A stretch of DNA of 64,000 nucleotides from an uncultured Pseudomonadota bacterium. GTDB lineage: Bacteria > Myxococcota_A > Polyangia > Fen-1088. Each line of letters begins with the position of its first letter. Within the stretch, counting starts at the first letter, position 1. Below, piece by piece: positions 4,759 to 63,528 of this stretch. A program made the position numbers and the translations under genes. Location of the stretch: contig CAWHRJ010000004.1 of NCBI GenBank assembly GCA_963831685.1, positions 448,812-512,811 of the forward strand, read 5' to 3'. Under the pieces are notes generated by a model that was given only the letters and a program-made list of their open reading frames with translations, was not told the origin of the DNA and made no database searches.

Positions 4759-4947
4759 GTGCTCGAACCTTGGATCATCGAACAGATCCGTCGTCGCGAG
4801 GAAGAGGAGCGGCGTCGCCACGAGCGACCGCGCCTCGAGATTCCTATGCGCGACGAACGCCGGCGTCCGGAGCCTGAGGACGGGGACGAGGAGCGCGAGG
4901 AGGATCACGACGCGCCCCAGCGCGGCGTCGTCATCATCGATATGTGA
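4759..4947 (+). CDS. Small, highly charged R/E-rich protein (62 aa), unknown function
   Basis: GTG start, 10 nt after AGAGG. The frame is GC3-biased. It has an ordered-looking N-terminus (MLEPWIIEQIRRREEE) and C-terminus (RGVVIIDM). Confidence 0.45.
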   Translation: MLEPWIIEQIRRREEEERRRHERPRLEIPMRDERRRPEPEDGDEEREEDHDAPQRGVVIIDM

Positions 4948-5034
4948 ACCGCAGCGTTCCGGCAGCTCCCCGGTTCGAGGTTGATCGCGTCGAGGGCGGA
5001 CGAGCTCTGCTCGGCCGACCTCATCGCGGGAGGT

Positions 5035-5057
5035 CTGGAACCCTCTCAGGGTTCCAG
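5035..5057 (+). promoter_or_regulatory. Perfect 10-bp/3-nt-loop palindrome CTGGAACCCT-CTC-AGGGTTCCAG, 14 nt upstream of the ATG at 5072
   Basis: Read directly from the sequence. It is a member of a three-copy family; the other copies are at 54474-54494 and 61034-61054. Confidence 0.55.
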
Positions 5058-5071
5058 GTTAGAAAGACGCC

Positions 5072-7654
5072 ATGGAGAAGGAGTCGGCGGGGTTCGTCGG
5101 GCGTCGGGCGGAGGTCGCGGTCCTGGATGAGGCGCTCGGGCGGGCGATCCGGTTCAACGCTCCCCAGACCGTGACGATCATCGCCGCGGATGGGCTCGGC
5201 AAGAGCCGCCTGTGCGATGAGTGGGTGGCCGCGCACCGGGGCGAGCAGCTGCGCATCGTGCGCGCGGCCGTGGAACAGGCGGTCGGGGCCGAGGCGGTGG
5301 CCCCGCGCGGGGCCCTGATCGCGCACCTGCTGCGCGTCCGGTTCGGGCTGGCCGAGCTGTCGCCAGACGAGGCCCTGCTGCAGTTCCGCGCGCAGCTGCA
5401 GGAGGTGTTCGGCGACCGGCGGATCCTCGAGCTGTCGACGCTGCTGGGCCGGTTTCTCGGCTTCGACCTGCCGGAGAGCCCGCTCGGCAGCGCTCTCGCG
5501 GGGCGCCCCGAGCAGGGGGCCGAGCTGGCGCGCGCGGTGCTTGCGCGCTTCCTCGAGCAGGACGCGGCCGGACGCCCAGTGGTCGTCATCGGCGAGAACC
5601 TGCAGGACGCCGACGACGACTCCCTGGCCGAGCTCGAGAGCCTGGCGGGCGAGCTGGTCGATGCGCCGATCATGATTGTCGCCACGGCGCGGCCGGAGCT
5701 GCTGGTCCGCCGCCCGGGGTGGGGGCGCGGTGGCGGCAACCACACCCGCATCGACCTGCAGCCGCTGACCCGGATGGAGATCGATCTGCTGGTCTCCTCG
5801 TACCTCGGCCCGTCGGCGCCGGTCCCCGCTGGCCTCGGCGAGCAGGTGGCGGCCGAATCGGCCGGCAATCCGCAGCTGGTCGGCGAGGTGCTGCGCGCTT
5901 ACCGAGAACACGGGATCCTGGCCGGCGGGCAGGGGCCGGGGGGCGAAGGGTGGCGCTTCGATCGGGATCGGGCGGCGCGCCAGCATCCCACGGCCACGCG
6001 CGAGGAGGTGGCGCACGCGCGCATCACCGTGCTGACGGCGGCCGAGCGCGACGTGCTGGCGCGCGCGGCGATCTTCGGCGGAGAGTTCTGGACCGGCGGG
6101 GTGGTGGCGCTGGGGCGAATGGCGGTGGCGCCCCCCGACGAGGCGGCGGTGTTCGCGCCCGATCCGACCATCACCGAGATCCATCAGATTCTGGAGAGCC
6201 TGCGCGAGCGTGGGTTCGTCGAGCGGGTGGCGAAGTCGTCGATCCCGGAGGAGACCGCCTGGGCCTTCTGCCAGACGATCGAGCGGCGCCTCTTGGAGGC
6301 CGACGCCGCATCGGAGCTGACCAAGCGCCGCAAGACCTTCGCCGCGCAGTGGCTGGAGAGCCGGGGCGGGGAGGGGCGCGAGCAGCGGCTCGAGGCGCTG
6401 GCGCGGCTCTACGAGGGGGCGGGCGACGCGCGCCGGGCCGCCTACTGCTTCGTGACGGCGGCGGGGCTGGCGCGCGATCACCTGCTGCTCGATCGCGCGC
6501 ACGCGCTCTACATGGCCGGGATCCGACACCTGGAGCTCGACGACGCCGTGGCCAAGATGGACGCGCTCTATGCGGCCGGGGACGTGGCGGCGCGGCTCGG
6601 GCGGACGCGTGAATCGGTGGGGCTGTTTCAGGAGATGCTGCGGCTGGCCTGGCGGCTCGATCTGCCTGCCAAGGGGGGGGCGGCGCACGGGCGGATCGGC
6701 CGGCTCCTGAGCACGCTGGGAGAGAACGCGCGCGCGCGGGCGCACCTGGAGCTCGCGCAGAAGCTGTTCGAGGTGGCGGGCGACGGGCCCGGCGTCGCGG
6801 CGGCGCTCGACGACATCGGGCGGATCCACTTCCTCATGGGCGAGCCGGAGCAGTCGCTGGCGCGGCACCGCTCGGCGCTCGCCGTGCGCGAGCAGCTGGG
6901 GGACGACCGCGGGCGCTCGCTGACGCTGTCGCGGCTCGGGCAGGTGCTGCGGGCGACCGGCGCGCTGTCGGCGGCGGGGGAACACTTCCGGGCGGCGCTC
7001 GATCTGCGCCGCCGGATCTCCAACCTGCCGGGGGTGATCGCCTCCCTGCTCGATCTCGGGGCGCTGGAGCGCGATCTCGGTCGCCGGCCGGAGGCGCTGT
7101 CGCTGCTGCGCGAGGGGCGCGATCTGGCGCGGGCGAGCGGCGAGAGGCTGCAGGAGTGCAGCCTGGCGATCGAGATTGGCGACTGTCACCTCGGCGACGG
7201 GCAACCGAACGCCGCCATCGCCGAGTTCCAGGCCGCGCGGGAGATAGCCCGGCAGTTCGGTGCGCGGGGGCTCCTGTCGGAGGCGACGCGCGGGATCGCC
7301 GAGGCGGAGCTGGCGCTGGGTGAGGCGGCGCGCGCGCGCGACGACGCCCGGTCGGCGTTCGAAATAGCCGAGCGGGCGGGGGCGCCGCCGCTGGCGGGCG
7401 CCGCGCTGCGGGTGGCCGCCGCCGCCGTCGGAGCCGGGGCGCCGGGCGAGGCCGATATGGGCGGGGCGCGCGAGATGTTCGACCGCGCGATCGAGGTCCT
7501 GACCGGCGCGGGCGCCGAGCTGGAGCTGGCCCGCACGCTCGATGCCTACGCGGAGTTCGAGGATCGCTCGGGGCGCGACGACACCGCCTCCGAGCTGCGC
7601 CGCCAGGCGCGCCTCATCCGCCACCGCGAGCCGCAGTCGTCGTCCGCGGCGTGA
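5072..7654 (+). CDS. STAND/AAA_16-type ATPase with C-terminal TPR array (signal-transduction regulator)
   Basis: The N-terminus reads FVGRRAEVAVLDEAL...TVTIIAADGLGKSRL (P-loop), followed by a Walker-B-like VVVIGENLQDADDDS. The C-terminal half is repeated TPR-like A/L/G-rich helices. The long minus-strand ORF 5021..7624 is an antisense shadow. Confidence 0.8.
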   Translation: MEKESAGFVGRRAEVAVLDEALGRAIRFNAPQTVTIIAADGLGKSRLCDEWVAAHRGEQLRIVRAAVEQAVGAEAVAPRGALIAHLLRVRFGLAELSPDEALLQFRAQLQEVFGDRRILELSTLLGRFLGFDLPESPLGSALAGRPEQGAELARAVLARFLEQDAAGRPVVVIGENLQDADDDSLAELESLAGELVDAPIMIVATARPELLVRRPGWGRGGGNHTRIDLQPLTRMEIDLLVSSYLGPSAPVPAGLGEQVAAESAGNPQLVGEVLRAYREHGILAGGQGPGGEGWRFDRDRAARQHPTATREEVAHARITVLTAAERDVLARAAIFGGEFWTGGVVALGRMAVAPPDEAAVFAPDPTITEIHQILESLRERGFVERVAKSSIPEETAWAFCQTIERRLLEADAASELTKRRKTFAAQWLESRGGEGREQRLEALARLYEGAGDARRAAYCFVTAAGLARDHLLLDRAHALYMAGIRHLELDDAVAKMDALYAAGDVAARLGRTRESVGLFQEMLRLAWRLDLPAKGGAAHGRIGRLLSTLGENARARAHLELAQKLFEVAGDGPGVAAALDDIGRIHFLMGEPEQSLARHRSALAVREQLGDDRGRSLTLSRLGQVLRATGALSAAGEHFRAALDLRRRISNLPGVIASLLDLGALERDLGRRPEALSLLREGRDLARASGERLQECSLAIEIGDCHLGDGQPNAAIAEFQAAREIARQFGARGLLSEATRGIAEAELALGEAARARDDARSAFEIAERAGAPPLAGAALRVAAAAVGAGAPGEADMGGAREMFDRAIEVLTGAGAELELARTLDAYAEFEDRSGRDDTASELRRQARLIRHREPQSSSAA

Positions 7655-42694: not shown

Positions 42695-43662
42695 CGGTCG
42701 GAGGCAGCGTTTCGCAGAGCCAGGACGATGTCGCGCTGGCCATCGGCGTGGTAGCTGGAGCGGACCATCGGGCCCGACTCGACGTGCGGGAATCCGAGCG
42801 CGAGGGCCTCGGCCTTGAGGGCGTCGAACTCGGCCGGGGGGACGAAGCGCGCGACCTCGAGGTGCTTGGGGGAGGGGCGTAGGTACTGGCCCAGCGTCAG
42901 GATGTCGACGCCGATCTGGCGCAGCTCGCCGAGGACGGCGCGCACCTCGTCGAGCTCCTCGCCGAGGCCCAGCATGAGGCCCGTCTTGGTGATCGCGCCC
43001 GCCGCCTTGGCGTGGCGAAGGATCGCGTACGAGCGCGGGTAGCTGGCCTGGACGCGGACCTGGCGCGACAAACGCGGGACGGTCTCCAGGTTGTGCGCGA
43101 AGACGTCGGGGCCGGCGCCGAGCACGGTGTCGACGGCGGTGGTGTCCCCCTTGAAGTCGCCCGTCAGGACCTCCAGCACCAGCTCGGGGCTGCGCCGCTT
43201 GACCGCGCGGATCGTCGCCGCCCAGTGCTCGGCGCCGCCGTCGGGGAGGTCGTCGCGGTCGACGCAGGTGATCACCGTGTGGCGCAGGCCGAGCTCGCCC
43301 AGCATCGTCGCGACATGTTCGGGCTCGTCGGGATCGGGCGGCAGCGGCCGCCCGGTCGGCACGTCGCAAAACTGACAAGACCGCGTGCAGATCCCGCCCA
43401 GGATCATGATGGTCAGCGACTGCCGGTTCCAGCACTCGCCGATGTTGGGGCACGACGCGCTCTCGCAGACGGTGTGCAGCCCCAGCTCGGCGACCCGCTG
43501 CTTGAGATCGAAGAAGACCTCGCCGCGCGGCATCTTCATCCGGATCCAGTCGGGCTTGGGCTGGAACTGCGGGCGCGCGGCCGGCGCGGCGCCGCTCGCC
43601 TCTAGCTCGGCCTGCAGGACGCGCAGCTTGCGCGACCGGGTCTCGACGATCCGCTCGGACAT
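42691..43662 (-). CDS. lipA: Lipoyl synthase LipA
   Basis: The Cys clusters CESASCPNIGECW and CTRSCQFC are present in an intact 323-aa frame. Confidence 0.95.
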   Translation of the reverse strand: MSERIVETRSRKLRVLQAELEASGAAPAARPQFQPKPDWIRMKMPRGEVFFDLKQRVAELGLHTVCESASCPNIGECWNRQSLTIMILGGICTRSCQFCDVPTGRPLPPDPDEPEHVATMLGELGLRHTVITCVDRDDLPDGGAEHWAATIRAVKRRSPELVLEVLTGDFKGDTTAVDTVLGAGPDVFAHNLETVPRLSRQVRVQASYPRSYAILRHAKAAGAITKTGLMLGLGEELDEVRAVLGELRQIGVDILTLGQYLRPSPKHLEVARFVPPAEFDALKAEALALGFPHVESGPMVRSSYHADGQRDIVLALRNAASDR

Positions 43663-49532: not shown

Positions 49533-50930
49533 TCAGAACGCCAGCGAGATCGGCTTCTCGAGGATCGCCACGATCGCTTGAAGCAGCCGGGCGCCGAGGG
49601 CGCCGTCGACGACGCGGTGGTCGCAGGAGAGGGTGATCGACATGCGCTGACCGACGACGATCTTGTCGTCCTTGACCACCGGCTCCTTGCGGACGGTGCC
49701 GACGGCCAGGATGGCCCCCTCGGGCGGGTTGATGATCGCCGCGAAGTCGCGGATCCCCATCATGCCCAGGTTGGAGACCGAGAAGGTCGCGCCGGTGTAC
49801 TCCTCGGGGCGCAGCTTGCGCTCGCGCGCCCGCTTGGCCATCTCGCGCGCCTCGGTGGCGATCTGCCCGATGGTCTTCTTGTCGGCGTCGCGGATGACCG
49901 GCGTGATGAGGCCGTCCTCGATGGCGACGGCCATGCCGATGTCGACGCGGGCGTGCTGGGTGATCGCCTCCTCGCCGAACGAGGCGTTCGCCTCCGGGAC
50001 CTTGCGCAGCGCCAGCGCGCAGGCCTTGAGCACCAGGTCGTTGACCGACAGCTTGGAGCCGTGGACCTGCGCCACCTGCTCGCGGAACTCCATCGCGGCG
50101 TCCATCTCGACGTCGGCGGTCAGGTAGAAGTGCGGGACGGTCGTCTTGGCCTCGAGCAGGCGGGCGGCGATCGTTCGCCGCATCATCGACAGCGGCTTGA
50201 CGAGATCGTCGGGGGGCGCGGCGGCGGCCGGGCGGGCCTCGGCGCGGCGCTCGGGGACCAGCTGCGCGGGAAGCGGCGCGGCGGACGACGCGCGCGGCGC
50301 GGTCGCCGTGGCGGGCGCCTCCTCGGCGGCGTGCCAGTCGACCAACGGGGCGGCTTGTCCCCCTCCGTCGGCCAGCGCCTTCACGTCGCGCTCGACGATC
50401 CGGCCCCCGGGGCCGGTCCCTTGCACGGTGCGGAGATCGACGCCGAGATCGGTCGCCAGCCTGCGGGCGAGCGGCGAGGCCAGCACCTTGGTCGCCGGCG
50501 TGCCCGCCGCGACGGCGGGACGGGGCGGGGGCGTCGGACGTGCGACCTGTCCGTTCGCCTTCGGGGCCGGCGCTGGCGCGGCGGCCTTCGGCGCCGGCGC
50601 GGGCGCCGTCGCCGCCACCTTGGCCGGCTCGGGCTTGGCGCCGCCCGAGGCGCGCCCCTTGGCCTCCTCGACCAGCTTGGAGATGTCGTCCCCCGCCTTG
50701 CCGATGATGGCGATCGGAGTCCCGACGGGGACGCTGGCGCCGTCGGCGATGAGGCGCTTGAGCAGCACGCCCTGATCGAACGCCTCGAAGTCCATCACCG
50801 CCTTGTCGGTCTCCACCTCGGCGAGCACCTCCCCCGGCGCCACCGTGTCACCTTCGTTCTTGCGCCACTTCTGCAGCACCCCGATCTTCATCGTGTCGGA
50901 GAGCTGCGGCATGTCGAGGATGGTTGCCAT
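49533..50930 (-). CDS. pdhC: Dihydrolipoamide acyltransferase (E2) of a pyruvate/2-oxoacid dehydrogenase complex
   Basis: It has a lipoyl domain (EVETDKAVMDFEA), an Ala/Pro linker, a subunit-binding domain (ASPLARRLA) and the catalytic DHRVVDGA. Confidence 0.92.
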   Translation of the reverse strand: MATILDMPQLSDTMKIGVLQKWRKNEGDTVAPGEVLAEVETDKAVMDFEAFDQGVLLKRLIADGASVPVGTPIAIIGKAGDDISKLVEEAKGRASGGAKPEPAKVAATAPAPAPKAAAPAPAPKANGQVARPTPPPRPAVAAGTPATKVLASPLARRLATDLGVDLRTVQGTGPGGRIVERDVKALADGGGQAAPLVDWHAAEEAPATATAPRASSAAPLPAQLVPERRAEARPAAAAPPDDLVKPLSMMRRTIAARLLEAKTTVPHFYLTADVEMDAAMEFREQVAQVHGSKLSVNDLVLKACALALRKVPEANASFGEEAITQHARVDIGMAVAIEDGLITPVIRDADKKTIGQIATEAREMAKRARERKLRPEEYTGATFSVSNLGMMGIRDFAAIINPPEGAILAVGTVRKEPVVKDDKIVVGQRMSITLSCDHRVVDGALGARLLQAIVAILEKPISLAF

Positions 50931-53226: not shown

Positions 53227-54439
53227 ATGGGCTCGCTTAGTGCATCCGGGGCAGAGGCAAAACAGGGACCCGAACCCGAGGCGGCGGGACGCGGTCTCGT
53301 CCTTCTGGTGGACGACGAACAGTCGATCGCGCGCGCCTACGCGCGCACGCTGGGCGCCGCCGGCTTCGCGGTCGAAGTCGCCTTCGACGGCAAGGAGGCG
53401 GCTGCGGCGGCGCGCGATCGCAGCTTCGACGTCATCGTCAGCGACATCGCGATGCCCGAGATGAACGGGCTCGAGCTCCTGCGCGCGGTGCGCGAGCACG
53501 ATCTCGACGTGCCGTTCGTCCTCATGACCGGCGGGCCGGCGATCGACAGCGCCGTCCGCGCCGTCGAGTACGGCGCCCTGCGCTACCTCATCAAGCCGGT
53601 CTCGGCGGCGGAGCTGGAGGAGGTGGTGGCGCGCGCGGTGCGGCTGCACCAGATGGCGCGCATCAAGCGCGAGGCGCTGGAGATGTTCCGGATGGACGGC
53701 AAGCACCTCGGCGACCGCGCCGGTCTCGAGGCGCGCTTCGCGTCGGCGCTCAGCTCGCTCTGGATCGCCTACCAGCCGATCGTCTCGTGGTCGAAGCGGT
53801 CGACGTTCGCCCACGAGGCGCTCGTGCGCAACGAGGAGCCGACCCTGCGCTCGCCTCCGGATCTGTTCGAGGCCGCCGAGCGCCTCGGGCGCCTGCGAGG
53901 AGCTCGGGCGCATCATCCGCGACCGCGTGGCCCAGACGCTGGACGCCCATCCCGTCGACGGCCTGCTGTTCGTCAACGTGCACGCGATGGAGCTGGCCGA
54001 CGATCGGCTCGTCTCCTCCGACGCGCCCCTGTCGCGCCACGCCGGACGCGTGGTCCTCGAGGTGACGGAGCGGGCGCCCCTCGAAAAGATCCGCGACGCC
54101 ACCAGCCGCGTCGCGCAGCTGCGCGCGCTCGGCTACCGCATCGCCGTCGACGATCTGGGCGCCGGCTACGCGGGGCTGACCAGCTTCGCGCACCTCGAGC
54201 CCGACGTGGTCAAGGTCGACATGTCGCTGATCCGCGGCATCGACAGCTCGCCGATGAAGCAGAAGCTGCTCGGCTCGATCGTCGGCCTCTGCCACGATCT
54301 CGGAATCGAGATCATCGCCGAGGGGATCGAGACGGCCGCCGAGCGCGACACGCTGGTCCGCCTCGGCGGCGATCTCTGCCAGGGCTACCTCTTCGCGCGT
54401 CCCGAGAAGCCCTGGGCCTCGATCAACTTCGACAAGTAG
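53227..54439 (+). pseudogene. Response-regulator receiver + EAL (c-di-GMP phosphodiesterase) protein, one frame break near 53897
   Basis: The REC domain reads LVLLVDDE...DVIVSDIAMPEMNG...KP. The EAL domain starts ...YQPIV...HEALVR. It continues in ORF 53927..54439 with VLEVTE...IAVDDLGAGYAGL...VKVDMSLIRGI...IAEGIET...GGDLCQGYLFARP. Confidence 0.85.
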
Positions 54440-54473
54440 GCCGCCACGCCGCTCGCACGGCGCGGGAGGGCGT

Positions 54474-54494
54474 GGGAACCCTTTGACGGTTCCC
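54474..54494 (+). promoter_or_regulatory. Palindrome GGGAACCCT-TTG-ACGGTTCCC (one mismatch), 13 nt upstream of the queD GTG
   Basis: Read directly from the sequence. It is related to the elements at 5035-5057 and 61034-61054. Confidence 0.45.
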
Positions 54495-54507
54495 ATATAC
54501 TGATGTC

Positions 54508-54870
54508 GTGCAAGTCGAGCTGACCAAGGAGTACCGCTTCGAGGCGGCGCATCACCTGCCACGCGTCCCGCAGGAGCACAAGTGCGCGCGCGTCCACGGC
54601 CACAGCTACAAGGTCGAGCTCGCCGTGGCGGGCGCGGTGAACCCGGAGACAGGGTGGCTCATCGACTTCGGCGTCATCGACGACGCCTGGGCCGTATTGT
54701 TCGAGCGCTTCGATCACCACAACCTGAACGACGTTCCGGGGCTCGAGAACTCGACCTGCGAGAACATCGCCATCTATGTCTGGCGCGAGCTGGCGCCGCG
54801 CATCGAGGAGCTCTCGGCGGTCACGGTCTGGGAGACCTACGACAGCAAGTGCACCTACCGGGGCGGCTGA
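54508..54870 (+). CDS. queD: 6-carboxy-5,6,7,8-tetrahydropterin synthase QueD
   Basis: It has FEAAHHLP...C...HGHSY (Zn/His motif) and is 120 aa, with ...DHHNLND. Confidence 0.9.
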   Translation: MQVELTKEYRFEAAHHLPRVPQEHKCARVHGHSYKVELAVAGAVNPETGWLIDFGVIDDAWAVLFERFDHHNLNDVPGLENSTCENIAIYVWRELAPRIEELSAVTVWETYDSKCTYRGG

Positions 54871-59631: not shown

Positions 59632-61013
59632 CTAGTCGTCGGCGGGATGCTTGACGATGGCCAGCGCGGCGTTGGCGTCGCGGACCTCGCGGGGAGCGCT
59701 CTCGGTCGGCGGCGCGGGGACGGCGAGGGCGGGCATCAGATCGGCGATGGTCACCCCGGCGATGCGGCGGCGGCGCCCCTCATCGAGCTCGTCGACCAGG
59801 CTCTGCAGCGCCGGGGAGGTCGCGCCACCGTGCGCGATCTCGATGTCGGTCGAGCGGAACACCGCCAGCACGTCGTCGAGCGGGATCGCCCCGGCCGCCC
59901 GCCCGGGGATGTAACCGTTGAGGTCGCCGTGCACCTCGGCGATGAGGCCGCGCGCCTTGAGCCGGTTGACGATCCGCTCGACGATGTCGGGCGTGAGGCC
60001 GAACTCGGTGGCCAGCCGCTCCTTGGGGTAGCCCGGCGCCCGCCGTCTCGTGCGTCGCCGCGACCGCCGCCAGGAGCTGCGCGGCGAGCAGGCCGTTGAT
60101 CGGCTCGTCGTCGCGCTGCCGGCGATCCTCCGCCTCGAGCAGCCGCAGGTTCTGCAGCGAGTGCGCGATCTCCGCGCCCAGCAGCACCAGCAGCCAGGAC
60201 GGTGTAGATCCAGACCAGCACCAGCGGCACGAGGCCGAGCGGGCCGTACACGCCGCTGTAGCTCTTGAGCATGATCTGCTGCGGCGAAGCGGACGAAGAC
60301 CAGCTTGACCAGCCTCGAGCAGGAACGCCGTGACCAGCGCCGCCGCACGATCGCCGCGCGACCAGTCGACGTTGGTGCGCGGCAGGAGCTTGTTCATCAG
60401 CACCAGCGCCAGGAACTGCGATCAGAACGGCGCGAAGAAGCGCGACACGGCGCCCGACTCGACGAGCCGCCCGGACCAGTAGAGCGAGAACGCCCGCCAG
60501 CGTCGGCAGCAGCGTGACCATCGCGTAGAAGGTCAGGAACTTGCCGATCATCGTGCGCCGCTGACCGACGCGCCAGATGTCGTTGAAGATCCGCTCGACG
60601 GTGGCGTAGAGCGAGTAGCAGGTGACGAGGTGAAGATGAGGCCGCCGCCGCCGAGCGCGCCGATGCTGACCTTGCCGGCGAACTACTGGATCTGCTCGGT
60701 GACGTCGGACATGCGCGGGAAGACGTGCTCGGCGAAGAACTGCAGGAGGCGCGACTGCGGCGTCGAGCGAGCCGACCGCGCGCAGGATCGAGAACGCGAT
60801 CGCCGTGACCGGCACCAGCCACAGCGCCGTCTGGAAGGCGAGGGCGGCCGCCTGCTGCGGGCACTTGTCGCGCGCCCACTGCGCCAGGATGCGGATCGAG
60901 AGGCGGTAGACGAAGATCGCGGCGCGTGCCCGACGCGACAGGCGCATCGTCGCGGCGGCCGTGTACGGGTTCGACTCCAGGAAGACCCGGAGCTGGTTGA
61001 ACGTCCGCCGCAT
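59632..61013 (-). pseudogene. YihY/BrkB-family membrane protein with C-terminal winged-helix-like extension, frame broken several times
   Basis: The N-terminus is QWARDKCPQQAAALAFQTALWLVPVTAIAFSIL. Other YihY segments (YATVERIFNDIWRV..., MIGKFLTFYAMVTLLPTL, VYGPLGLVPLVLVWIYTVL) lie in different frames. The C-terminus is ERLATEFGLTPDIVERIVNRLKARGLIAEV. Confidence 0.7.
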
Positions 61014-61033: not shown

Positions 61034-61054
61034 CGGGACCCTGAGAGGGTCCCG
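61034..61054 (-). promoter_or_regulatory. Perfect 9-bp/3-nt-loop palindrome (minus strand: CGGGACCCT-CTC-AGGGTCCCG) between the lipase stop and the yihY start
   Basis: Read directly from the sequence. It sits 20 nt upstream of the ATG at 61013 and 21 nt downstream of the stop at 61076. It has the same ACCCTCTCAGGGT core as 5035-5057. Confidence 0.55.
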
Positions 61055-61075
61055 CTCGCCCCGGTCGACGCGCAA

Positions 61076-62095
61076 CTAACGCAGGGCGCGCAGGATCGCG
61101 TCGAAGACGGCCTGGGTGCGCACCATGTCCCGGTGGCGGGTGACCGGCAGCTTGACCACCTCGGGCTCGGCCCCCGCCCAGGCGTGCGCCGCTCCGACGG
61201 CGATCGTGCCGTCGCCGTCGCCGATCGCCGCCGGCGGCAGCCCCGCCAGCCGACCCTCGCCGGGGAGTCGCGCGCGCCCCTTCTCGACGACGATCCGCAC
61301 CTGCGTCGGCAGCCCGGTGCCGCAGATGCAGACCAGGCGCCGCGGCGCCGCCGCGCCGTCGAGCACACGGTAGAGCTCGCGCACCGCGGCCAGGCGCTGC
61401 CGGACGACGTCGGTCCAGACCGGATCGTCCGGCTGTCGGCGGAACACCGACAGCCGCAGGCGCCGCCAGGTCTCGACATCGTAGAGGTCGTAGCCGGCGT
61501 CCTCGGGGAGAAAGCCGGCCCCCGCCGGCTCGGGGATCGAATCGAGCCCGCCCGGGCAGGACATGAACTCCTCCGGCGTCACCCGCCGCCCGAGCGGCGC
61601 GAAGCGAAACCCGGCGTCGAAGCAGGCGACCGTCTCGATTGTCCCGGCGTGGGCGCCCCCCGACGTCACCACCCGCTCGACCGGCAGCTCCCGGTCGGCC
61701 GCGTAGGCGGCGCGCACGATCGGCCCGCCGTTCGAGAGGCCCAGGATGTCGATCTCCTCGCCGGCGCTGGCCGCGATCCGCCGCACCTCCGCCGCCAGCT
61801 CGACGCCGAGGCCGACCACCGGCTGCCGCCAGTCGTAGGTGAAGAAGTGGAGCGTCTGCCCCGGCCGATACCCCGCGCCGACGAGCGCCCGCTCGAGCTT
61901 GCCGACGAGATCGTACGTCAGGCCGAAGGGCAGGGGGATGCCGCGCAGGAGCCCCTTCGCCCCCCCGCGCACCCCGCCGAGCGCGCCGATCGGCGGCCCA
62001 CCGTAGAGCTGCGCGAACCGCCCCCAGATGAAGCCGAGCTTGTCATCGTGGATCTCGGTGCAAAAGAGCCCCGGGACGACCAGCAAGGGACGCAA
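61076..62095 (-). CDS. LCAT/PGAP1-like alpha/beta-hydrolase (lipase/acyltransferase); start uncertain
   Basis: It has FFTYDWRQ (LCAT-type motif) and the nucleophile elbow GLSNGG. The upstream part of track ORF 61076..62464 is R/P-rich junk. A possible TTG start at 62095 gives LRPLLVVPGLF. Confidence 0.7.
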   Translation of the reverse strand: MRPLLVVPGLFCTEIHDDKLGFIWGRFAQLYGGPPIGALGGVRGGAKGLLRGIPLPFGLTYDLVGKLERALVGAGYRPGQTLHFFTYDWRQPVVGLGVELAAEVRRIAASAGEEIDILGLSNGGPIVRAAYAADRELPVERVVTSGGAHAGTIETVACFDAGFRFAPLGRRVTPEEFMSCPGGLDSIPEPAGAGFLPEDAGYDLYDVETWRRLRLSVFRRQPDDPVWTDVVRQRLAAVRELYRVLDGAAAPRRLVCICGTGLPTQVRIVVEKGRARLPGEGRLAGLPPAAIGDGDGTIAVGAAHAWAGAEPEVVKLPVTRHRDMVRTQAVFDAILRALR

Positions 62096-62160
62096 GGTCG
62101 GGACACGGTAGCAGACGCCGGCGGCCGGCCGGCTCGAATTCTTCGTGGCCGGGTGGGGCG

Positions 62161-62190
62161 CGCGCGGCGCAACTTCTGGTCGCGCGGCGC
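62161..62190. repeat. Perfect 10-nt direct repeat CGCGCGGCGC-N10-CGCGCGGCGC in the divergent lipase/bEBP intergenic region
   Basis: The copies are at 62161-62170 and 62181-62190, followed by gagTATTATtcc and the ATG at 62214. Confidence 0.35.
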
Positions 62191-62213
62191 GAGTATTATT
62201 CCCACGAACACGG

Positions 62214-63528
62214 ATGCTGGTACTTGAGCAGAGGGGGGACACGGAGCCCGAAGAGCGGCCGTCGCGCCACGCCGGCAAGCGCGCGGTTCTTCTGGTCGCC
62301 TCGTCCGACGGCTTCCGGATCGTGGCGCCGCTCCCGGCCGGAGGCGCGACGACCATCGGCCGCGCCCCGGGGGACACGCCCGTCACGACCGCCGACGGGC
62401 CTGGCCCGTCGACCCTGCTCCCCGACGGCCTGCTGTCGCGCCAGCACCTGCGAATCGCCCACACGGAGCGCGGCTACGAGGCCGCCGACCTCGAGAGCCG
62501 CAACGGAACGCTGCTGGATGGCCGGCGGCTCGAGCAGCCGACCCGCCTCTCCGAGGGATCCATCCTCCTCTTCGGGAGCTACTCCGGCGTCTTCCGGATG
62601 GTCACCGACGCCGAGCTGGCGGCGCTGCGCCTGGACGCCGACAGCCCCTTCGGCCCGGTCCCGACCTTCTCGCCAGCGCTGGCCCTGACCTACGAGCGCC
62701 TGCGCAAGCTGGCCCGGACCGACACCGAGCTCCTGCTGGCCGGCGAGACGGGGGTCGGCAAGGAGATCTGCGCCCGCGCCATCCACGGCGCGGGCGGCCG
62801 GTCGAGGCGCCTCGGGCCGCGCCGGCGCCCACTCGACCGCCACGCGGGCCAAGCGGGGCCTGGTCGAGGCGGCCGACCGGGGGACGCTGCTGCTCGACGA
62901 GATCGGCGACATGGCACCCGAGCTGCAGGCCAAGATCTTCCGCTTCTTGCAGGACAGGACCTACCTACCGCTGGGAGCGACCAAGGTCCGCCGGGCCGAC
63001 GTCCGCGTCCTGGCTGCCACCACCCGATCCAACATCGGCCCGGCGGGCAATGCCTTGCGCCCCGACCTGGTCGCCCGCCTCGGCGCCGAGCCGACCGTCA
63101 TTCCCCCCTTGCGCCGCCGCGCCGAGGAGGTCGTACCGCTCGTCGCCCACTTCCGCACCGGCGCAGTCCGCAAGATCGAGCCCGCCGCTCTGCGCGCCAT
63201 GGCCCTCTACGCCTGGCCCCTCAACGTCCGCGAGCTGGAGAAGACTCTGGCCAACGCCATCGCCTTGTCATCCGACGGCGAGCTGCTGCTGGAGAACCTT
63301 CCCAGCGCCGTCCGCGGCTCCCTCGAGCGCGGCGCCCCCATCGAGGCGCGCGCCCGCAAGCCCCGCGCGGCACCCGACCGGCACGAGCTGGAACAGATTC
63401 TCAAGCAGCACGAGGGCAACGTCGCCAGCGTGGCGCGGGCCCTCGACCGGAAGTGGAACGTCGTCTGGCGGTGGATGGCGAAGCACGGGCTCCGGCCGGA
63501 GAAGTTTCGGAAGGGGCCGGAGGAATAG
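62214..63528 (+). pseudogene. FHA-domain, sigma-54-activator-like (AAA+/Fis HTH) regulator; frame broken and AAA+ core atypical around 62800-62900
   Basis: FHA: TIGRAPG...LLSRQHLRI...DLESRNGTLLDG. Walker A: GETGVGKE. The protein continues in ORF 62911..63528 with LLLDEIGDM, LQAKIFRFLQD, DVRVLAAT, WPLNVRELE and a Fis-type HTH (GNVASVARALDRKWNVVWRWMAKHG). Confidence 0.8.

Follow-up and report, generated by a model that had tools for sequence, protein, structure and literature searches.

The DNA analysed here is a 64-kb window (C4:448812-512811) of a 74%-complete Polyangia MAG, G000, assembled into 6.3 Mb on 17 contigs with 70% G+C. It contains three copies of the palindrome GGRACCCT-N3-AGGGTYCC, each between co-directional genes and facing the start of the downstream one (Table 1). 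Copy 1 lies between a conserved 62-aa ORF (4759-4947) and an 860-aa STAND ATPase gene (5072-7654), and copy 2 is flanked by a 170-aa ORF, whose end is at 54439, and by queD (54508-54870). Copy 3, flanked by two minus-strand genes (61076-62464 and 59751-61013), occupies the whole spacer from the upstream stop codon (61076-61078) to the yihY ATG (61013). Reading the sequence bore out the positions, start distances and orientation given in the initial annotation, as well as its statement that the window holds no others: a pattern search allowing up to two mismatches returned exactly three. Chance would supply 0.05 palindromes in the window, as estimated from shuffles, and three were reached in 0 of 100 shuffles. 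The 62-aa ORF on the plus strand, 5' of the STAND ATPase gene, was missed by our codon-usage gene caller; its product is extremely charged and rich in Glu, Arg and Asp, DNA conservation along the stretch is 79-93%, and the stop falls at the same position (after ...ATCGAnATG) in nearly all genus genomes compared.

Table 1. Palindromes, elements and adjoining features at the three loci, in window coordinates.
Feature	Position	Strand	Remarks
Copy 1 palindrome, CTGGAACCCT-CTC-AGGGTTCCAG	5035-5057	+	14 nt before ATG at 5072
Copy 1, full-length element	4985..5057	+	From the sequence; nhmmer match C4:453802-453876
Copy 1 domain 1, long interrupted hairpin	4985-5028	+	Closed by CGCG 4986-4989 / CGCG 5025-5028
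Copy 1 linker, GGAGGT	5029-5034	+	
Copy 1 hairpin 2 with extended stem (CTGGAACCCT-CTC-AGGGTTCCAG)	5035-5057	+	
Copy 1 target-derived flank	5060..5074	+	-10-like TAGAAA 5060-5065; STAND ATPase ATG 5072-5074
Copy 2 palindrome, GGGAACCCT-TTG-ACGGTTCCC	54474-54494	+	13 nt before GTG at 54508
Copy 2, 29-nt hairpin-2-only insert, AGGGCGT-GGGAACCCT-TTG-ACGGTTCCC-A	54467..54495	+	
-10 box TATACT of queD	54496-54501	+	Directly 3' of copy 2; pre-existing GCGCGGG on the 5' side
Copy 3 palindrome, CGGGACCCT-CTC-AGGGTCCCG	61034-61054	-	20 nt before ATG at 61013
Copy 3, internally deleted element, TTGCGCGTCGA-CCGGGGCGAGC-hairpin 2	61034..61075	-	

A genome-wide pattern search of G000 found 123 exact palindromes, and 147 with one mismatch allowed, far from randomly placed; to call copy 1 the first of three, as had been done initially, was a large undercount. 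The unit, too, is larger than the palindrome of 19-23 nt for which it had been taken: it is an oriented element, about 75-85 nt long, with the palindrome as its 3' hairpin. A conserved upstream module, always in a single orientation, precedes 136 of the 147 palindromes, and an nhmmer profile search of G000 recovered 153 copies (126 full length; 75 plus, 78 minus) dispersed over nearly all contigs. From 5' to 3' the parts are TCGCGTG, a long interrupted hairpin, GGAGCYCRTCGCGGGRGG and the palindrome, hereafter hairpin 2. The full unit reads 5'-TCGCGTG-RGSGRAG-(variable hairpin)-GGAGCYCRTCGCGGGRGG-N3-4-GGRACCCT-YYS-AGGGTYCC-N1-3 and is followed by 6-9 A/T-rich bases; counted from the start of the palindrome, positional information exceeds background between about -54 and +28 and nowhere else. 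Loops, in the element's orientation, include CCC (66), TTG (20), CTC (17) and TCG (10). In further subfamilies the 3' module is the same but follows one of two other 5' domains, and in about six copies in G000 the hairpin-2 module stands alone. Both G000 and related genomes often have 2-5 units arrayed head to tail, spaced at 78-87 nt.

We aligned 109 distinct full copies and derived an alifold consensus, which comprises two domains: domain 1 is the long interrupted hairpin, closed by CGCG/CGCG, and domain 2 is the palindrome extended by 1-3 outer pairs that are variable yet complementary (C/G 25, TG/CA 16, CG/CG 15, CA/TG 11, GCG/CGC 9, CCG/CGG 9, and others). The covariation test suggested in the initial annotation gave a clear answer, as changes are compensatory in both hairpins: ten variable pairs are 94% canonical in the 109 copies; shuffling the columns lowers this to 66% (1000 shuffles, maximum 70%), and sliding the partner column to 27-44%. 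The R/Y arm position is A-T in 73 of the 147 palindromes, G-C in 70 and otherwise in 4, and 46 different complementary haplotypes of the domain 1 apical stem occur among the 109 copies. Non-Watson-Crick pairs are G.U in 22 cases and A.C in 4 (p = 5e-4), which shows that a specific strand is kept foldable. Copy 1 as a whole folds at -44.8 kcal/mol as RNA and at -30 kcal/mol with DNA parameters, hairpin 2 alone at about -16 and -10 kcal/mol, respectively. Guide-like pairing of the hypervariable stem with the flanks was considered and dropped, as the excess of matches is weak (5.71 versus 5.45±0.10) and due to a few outliers.

All 25 genomes of the genus (G000 and 24 others) carry the pattern, at 14-252 copies each, and of 16 further families in the class one has it too; a reversed-pattern control gave 0-1 matches in 41 genomes. 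The loop variants that have expanded differ by genome, as with TCC in G008 and TTC in G002. A species-wide scan for CGCGGGRGG-N2-6-palindrome, using one genome for each of 185,579 prokaryotic species, returned at least 106 loci; among the loci listed, all belong to uncultured Polyangia, 'Myxococcales' or unclassified 'proteobacterium' MAGs, whose habitats are soil, fen and permafrost. An Rfam E-value search with copy 1 gave chance matches only, far below gathering scores, and no matching family.

The repeat family is gained and lost between close relatives, its stems hypervariable and its architecture conserved. At the copy 1 locus the element is missing from the orthologous spacer in 10 of 13 genus genomes, while G000 holds the element, G041 1.5 tandem units and G015 hairpin 2 only; the G015 sequence is an equal-length replacement with no net insertion, and a contribution from gene conversion is therefore possible. 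Hairpin 2 is also able to insert by itself, in a unit of 29 nt: at the copy 2 locus G000 equals the sequence of its relative G018 plus exactly 29 nt (AGGGCGT-palindrome-A), between GCGCGGG and TATACT, and boundary optimisation against G018 gave one unambiguous 29-nt cut. By the same procedure a second precise 29-nt hairpin-only insert was placed after GAGCGGGG. The queD spacer has been struck independently in G000, G021, G015 and G003; G021 carries a full-length copy of its own, ending ...GGGTTCCCA|TATAAT, and G015 and G003 carry reverse-oriented copies next to the upstream stop codon.

A wider comparison covered 779 kb of G018, the closest relative, which is syntenic and about 90% identical. 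This region holds 27 copies in G018 and 12 in the corresponding G000 DNA, and only the yihY site (copy 3) is clearly common to both; there G018 has a full-length element and G000 one without the apical part of domain 1, the deletion lying between two TCGCG(T/G) direct repeats. Window positions ~1577-1591, ~31976, ~42695-42725 and ~50287-50377 are empty in G000 and filled in G018, the site at ~31976 by a precise insert of 78 nt that separates a TGA stop from the ribosome-binding site (CGGAGG) of the next gene. Full inserts, as delimited by boundary optimisation, measure 76-83 nt, and a 57-nt derivative is without the 5' arm of hairpin 2. Insert ends are not uniform: three precise inserts have 0-1 nt of ambiguity and others have imperfect repeats of 4-8 nt. 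Direct repeats between left flank and tail are in modest excess over shuffled pairings (mean LCS 3.05 versus 2.72±0.07), with 10 of at least 5 nt versus 3.3. The YTAR or TATAAT next to hairpin 2 pre-exists in the empty site at 7 of 10 informative sites; at the other 3 the A/T-rich tail came with the element, not from the target.

Placement was assessed against 5086 genes (79% coding) from a home-made codon-usage ORF caller, which is crude and gives approximate starts. Intergenic enrichment, a check suggested at the outset, is pronounced: 114 of the 153 copies fall outside called genes, far more than random placement at 79% coding would give (p = 2e-45), and 18 of the remaining 39 have a gene boundary no more than 120 nt away. 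Convergent spacers hold 37 of these 114 copies (17.9 expected, twofold enriched) and divergent spacers 11 (32.2 expected, threefold depleted), a spacer-type distribution far from expectation (chi2 = 34, p = 3e-8). The hairpin-2 side points toward the end of an opposite-strand gene in 78 of 114 copies (44% expected, p = 1e-7), and an opposite-strand stop codon begins 3-6 nt past the palindrome in 32 of 136 copies; 25 of 114 copies show the arrangement found in the window, co-directional and with the palindrome directed at the start of the next gene. The initial annotation held that random placement with no bias toward start codons would speak against the element. Copies are strongly non-random, but a start-codon bias is missing genome-wide, with 36 of 114 facing a start: the bias is toward gene ends.

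Hairpin 2 usually ends 0-5 nt from a motif rich in T and A (YTAR, TATAAT). The tail has the consensus A-T-Y-T-R-R, without a T run, and about 65-70% of copies have YGA as their left flank. Because T/A-rich motifs in a genome of 70% G+C are mostly stop codons (on either strand) or -10 boxes, copies accumulate at gene ends and, less often, directly 5' of promoters close to a start codon.

Deep within ORFs there are seven copies, and at least five have a same-frame coding signature on both sides. One in-frame copy (G000 C2:711909-711983; orthologous loci L219-L231) occupies a site at which 11 relatives have a short linker rich in Pro, Ala and Thr, 9-27 nt long and in every case a multiple of three. 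Element-derived inserts make this stretch 90 nt in G000, 129 nt in G023 and 45 nt in G024, again multiples of three and stop-free; G018 is without the insert although its flanks are 96-97% identical to those of G000.

The three window copies are of the minority type that sits directly 5' of a -10 box. In 10 of 13 genus genomes the empty copy 1 site is a short spacer, ...ACTGGAC(G)-N17-CTAGACA-N7-ATG, with TTGACG as the first hexamer (-35 position) in G021, and it looks like a sigma-70-type promoter; this putative STAND ATPase promoter lies very near the ATG, so its mRNA would have little or no leader. At the copy 2 locus seven genomes read ...CGGG|TATA(A/C)T-N6-7-GTG. Judged from these alignments, the near-start promoters predicted for the STAND ATPase gene and queD across 7-10 genomes suggest leaderless or near-leaderless mRNAs in the genus. 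The constant spacing is thus real, and arises because the element landed directly 5' of existing -10 boxes, in promoters 6-11 nt from the start codon; the distance from palindrome to start is that of the -10 hexamer plus a short discriminator or leader, and for this reason the spacing of 13-20 nt looks constant. Copy 1 has the outer pair CT/AG, unique among 117 copies, and its 5' arm with this pair restores CTGGAA where the ancestral -35 CTGGAC stood, with the spacing of 17-18 nt unchanged, which is suggestive of selection for promoter compatibility. Ancestral promoter spacers share a weak excess identity with hairpin 2 (11-13/28 versus 7.5±2.2); the idea that such a spacer is itself a decayed hairpin 2 was set aside on this weak support.

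We searched for an enzyme that could mobilise the element. The Y1_Tnp profile (PF01797) had no match above cut-off in G000, a 74%-complete MAG, and none in 15 of 26 genus genomes, which are incomplete MAGs; no element lies within 1.5 kb of any Y1 gene in the genus genomes. The genus has one strong match to a canonical Y1 transposase, in G021 only, with no element copy adjacent. The weak Y1_Tnp matches in G000 are the roughly 42 copies of TIRYT, a 1-kb RAYT-like (HUH/Y1) insertion sequence (for example C4:1860042-1860992, C2:846092-846538 and C2:469837-470286) that has about 20 matches in G018. TIRYT copies are mostly 95-98% identical and represent a large, recent expansion. As a mover TIRYT was rejected: its ends have no similarity to the element, nine genus genomes with 38-79 elements have no TIRYT, and five other families have TIRYT and no element. 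We also rejected an autonomous element with split ends, there being no ends that flank an ORF among 132 domain-1 matches; hairpin 2 follows directly in 125 of these and variant hairpins in the other 7. Genes bracketed by pairs of copies are ordinary housekeeping genes. Helitron/IS91-like termini (A|TC...CTRR|T) were dropped because clean insertions do not end in CTRR, and integron attC sites because copies are dispersed over all contigs and the R'/R'' cores misfit the arms by eye. Lagging-strand ssDNA transposition would predict an orientation bias with GC skew, and none was observed (31/31 and 44/47).

We conclude, with a probability of about 80%, that the palindrome is hairpin 2 of a non-coding, oriented two-hairpin repeat that is mobile, or was very recently mobile, in this Polyangia (Myxococcota) genus, whose members are uncultured soil bacteria. 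Among the readings first offered, the data support that of a small REP-like element, the copies forming a dispersed, structured, insertion-polymorphic repeat family. The element would spread via a folded single-strand intermediate recognised by its structure, like the substrates of REP/RAYT or IS200/IS605 systems, with the mobilising enzyme acting in trans; we infer the single-strand intermediate from the dependence on structure and the one folded strand. Effects on neighbouring genes, such as a replaced -35 region, hairpins at 3' ends and in-frame peptide inserts, would be by-products and not the repeat's reason.

The window itself had invited a different reading, that of a shared operator through which a dimeric transcription factor controls the STAND ATPase, queD and yihY genes, and three promoters whose -35/spacer region is covered by a perfect dyad at a constant distance from the start do look the part. 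Across the genome, however, the sites are not confined to promoters: about 150 copies exist, most of them next to gene ends rather than starts, 78 of 114 facing a gene end, 36 a start and 25 being arranged as in the window, and others form tandem arrays or lie in frame within coding sequence. The palindrome is attached to a conserved asymmetric 45-nt module, the changes in its arms are compensatory, as a hairpin needs and a protein half-site does not, and the site is missing 5' of the STAND ATPase and queD orthologues in most relatives; we regard an operator as extremely improbable. Enterobacterial REPs have been proposed as selected RNA features of gene ends, and a functional RNA feature here, whether 3'-UTR stabiliser, terminator or processing hairpin, would suit the stable RNA hairpins (hairpin 2 folds at -16 kcal/mol and the entire element at -45 kcal/mol), the enrichment at gene ends and convergent spacers, and a strand-specific wobble bias that is compatible with RNA. 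Yet in the commonest arrangement, next to an opposite-strand stop, the mRNA would be the complement of the G.U-biased strand; hairpin 2 differs from an intrinsic terminator in being followed by no U-tract, and a terminator scan at copy 1 was negative; copies also lie 5' of starts and within genes, and at 90% identity positions are almost never shared between genomes. Selection for such a feature is a decidedly unlikely origin of the family. The intercistronic terminator or processing hairpin of the initial annotation may hold as a side effect of the hairpins.

Three further explanations concern how a mobile repeat could be copied. Homology-assisted copying, by gene conversion or template switching between dispersed copies and sites that are decayed or micro-homologous, with no dedicated transposase, has a small but real probability, for none of the transposases tested proved to be a partner, both 29-nt inserts begin right after a pre-existing GCGGG(G) that mimics the element's CGCGGG(G), and a YTAR or TATA motif pre-exists in 7 of 10 sites. 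The repeated use of the same spacers, the equal-length replacement in G015, the weak similarity of ancestral spacers to hairpin 2 (11-13/28 versus 7.5±2.2) and the deletion derivatives between internal direct repeats fit it as well. It accounts poorly for clean insertions at sites unlike the element, such as TGA|CGGAGG, for about 150 dispersed copies with genome-specific expansions of different loop variants, and for micro-homologies of 5-7 nt, which are short for RecA-type conversion. A SINE-like retro-element, for which a host reverse transcriptase would copy an RNA into T/A-rich sites by target-primed synthesis, would explain the single folded strand, a 3' module that inserts alone with micro-homology at the 5' junction, direct repeats that are variable or absent, A/T-rich targets and head-to-tail arrays. 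We think it very unlikely, since most apparently 5'-truncated matches are subfamilies with a different 5' domain, and there is no linked RT gene and no poly-A or fixed 3' tail; such elements are not known from bacteria. It is also conceivable, if rather doubtful, that the family is a structure-selected replicator moved by no known transposase class. The stem haplotypes, folded strand, 29-nt module, arrays, re-use of spacers and lack of a Y1, RAYT or DDE partner would fit a single-strand copy-and-anneal process acting on cDNA or ssDNA. Its driver could be, for example, an unrecognised HUH-like enzyme or a reverse transcriptase, of which myxobacteria have many.

Interspersed hairpin repeats that are small and non-coding are well known as a general kind; this family is apparently undescribed, with no description found in literature searches and no Rfam family. 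Among the closest likenesses of the two-hairpin repeat are the REP/BIME/REPIN sequences and RAYTs of Enterobacteria and Pseudomonas: short G+C-rich hairpins with some 100-250 copies outside genes, over-represented in convergent spacers and at the 3' ends of genes, mosaic in build with different flanking modules on the same hairpin, selected for structure and specific to a genus or species. As a high-copy, mostly extragenic short palindrome (123-153 copies) the family would belong there. In contrast to REP/RAYT systems, most genus genomes have no RAYT gene and none adjoins the copies, the MAGs being incomplete; the element is without a GTAG-type head, the 3-4 nt before the hairpin being variable and pairing with the 3' side; copies are single or head-to-tail (78-87 nt spacing) and not inverted doublets; and the unit has a second, longer hairpin with a hypervariable stem. 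PATEs, which derive from IS200/IS605 and are served by Y1 HUH TnpA, resemble the element in their two subterminal hairpins and lack of terminal inverted repeats, in top-strand-specific folding (G.U 22 versus A.C 4 here), and in several clean inserts without target duplication and a biased left flank (YGA). They differ in that our two hairpins are unrelated in sequence, there is no bias with replication direction, the search turned up no cognate TnpA, and short direct repeats accompany some copies.

MITEs of the IS5/IS630 type in high-G+C genomes, which target CTAG or TA, are likewise small, non-coding and polymorphic between relatives, and land on T/A-rich tetranucleotides that coincide with stop codons. 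The element is, by contrast, asymmetric, with ends TCGCGTG... and ...GGTYCC(N1-3) and no terminal inverted repeats; it has no fixed-length target duplication, and the assembly holds no autonomous IS with its ends. Small mobile sequences of enterobacteria reportedly occur within genes. The in-frame copies inside protein-coding genes recall these and the Rickettsia palindromic elements (RPE), although intragenic copies are here a small minority and there is no sequence relationship. The family lacks defining traits of REP/RAYT, MITE and IS200/IS605 miniature elements, and it is unusual in its compensated hypervariable stems, 29-nt hairpin-only inserts, arrays, re-use of spacers and in-frame copies.

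Annotation throughout the genus should treat the roughly 150 sites per genome as members of a single repeat family rather than as operators, terminators or small genes. The family is also a natural experiment: turnover is almost complete between genomes that are 90% identical, copies land repeatedly on stop codons and on near-start -10 boxes, where they replace the -35 region of promoters, and the element is tolerated in frame inside proteins. Since it stands apart from REP/RAYT, MITE and IS200/IS605 elements, identifying its mover could bring to light a new route by which small DNA spreads; should an overlooked ordinary enzyme move it, it is simply another REP-like family.

Two minor observations concern the arrangement of the units. 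Perfect head-to-tail arrays of 4-5 whole units with a period of 78-80 nt occur in G000 (C4:570664-570982), in G021 (C8:200658-200972) and at L122 (CAWAKD010000009.1). REP and MITE families do not usually show this arrangement, which slippage or the copying mechanism itself could have left behind. Another palindrome, TCGCGGGGGGGGCCCTAAAGGCCCCTCCCGCGA, is found in G000 at C6:94874 (+) and C6:204593 (-), with the TCGCGGG motif re-used as both outer arms, and may be a separate small repeat or a rearranged derivative.
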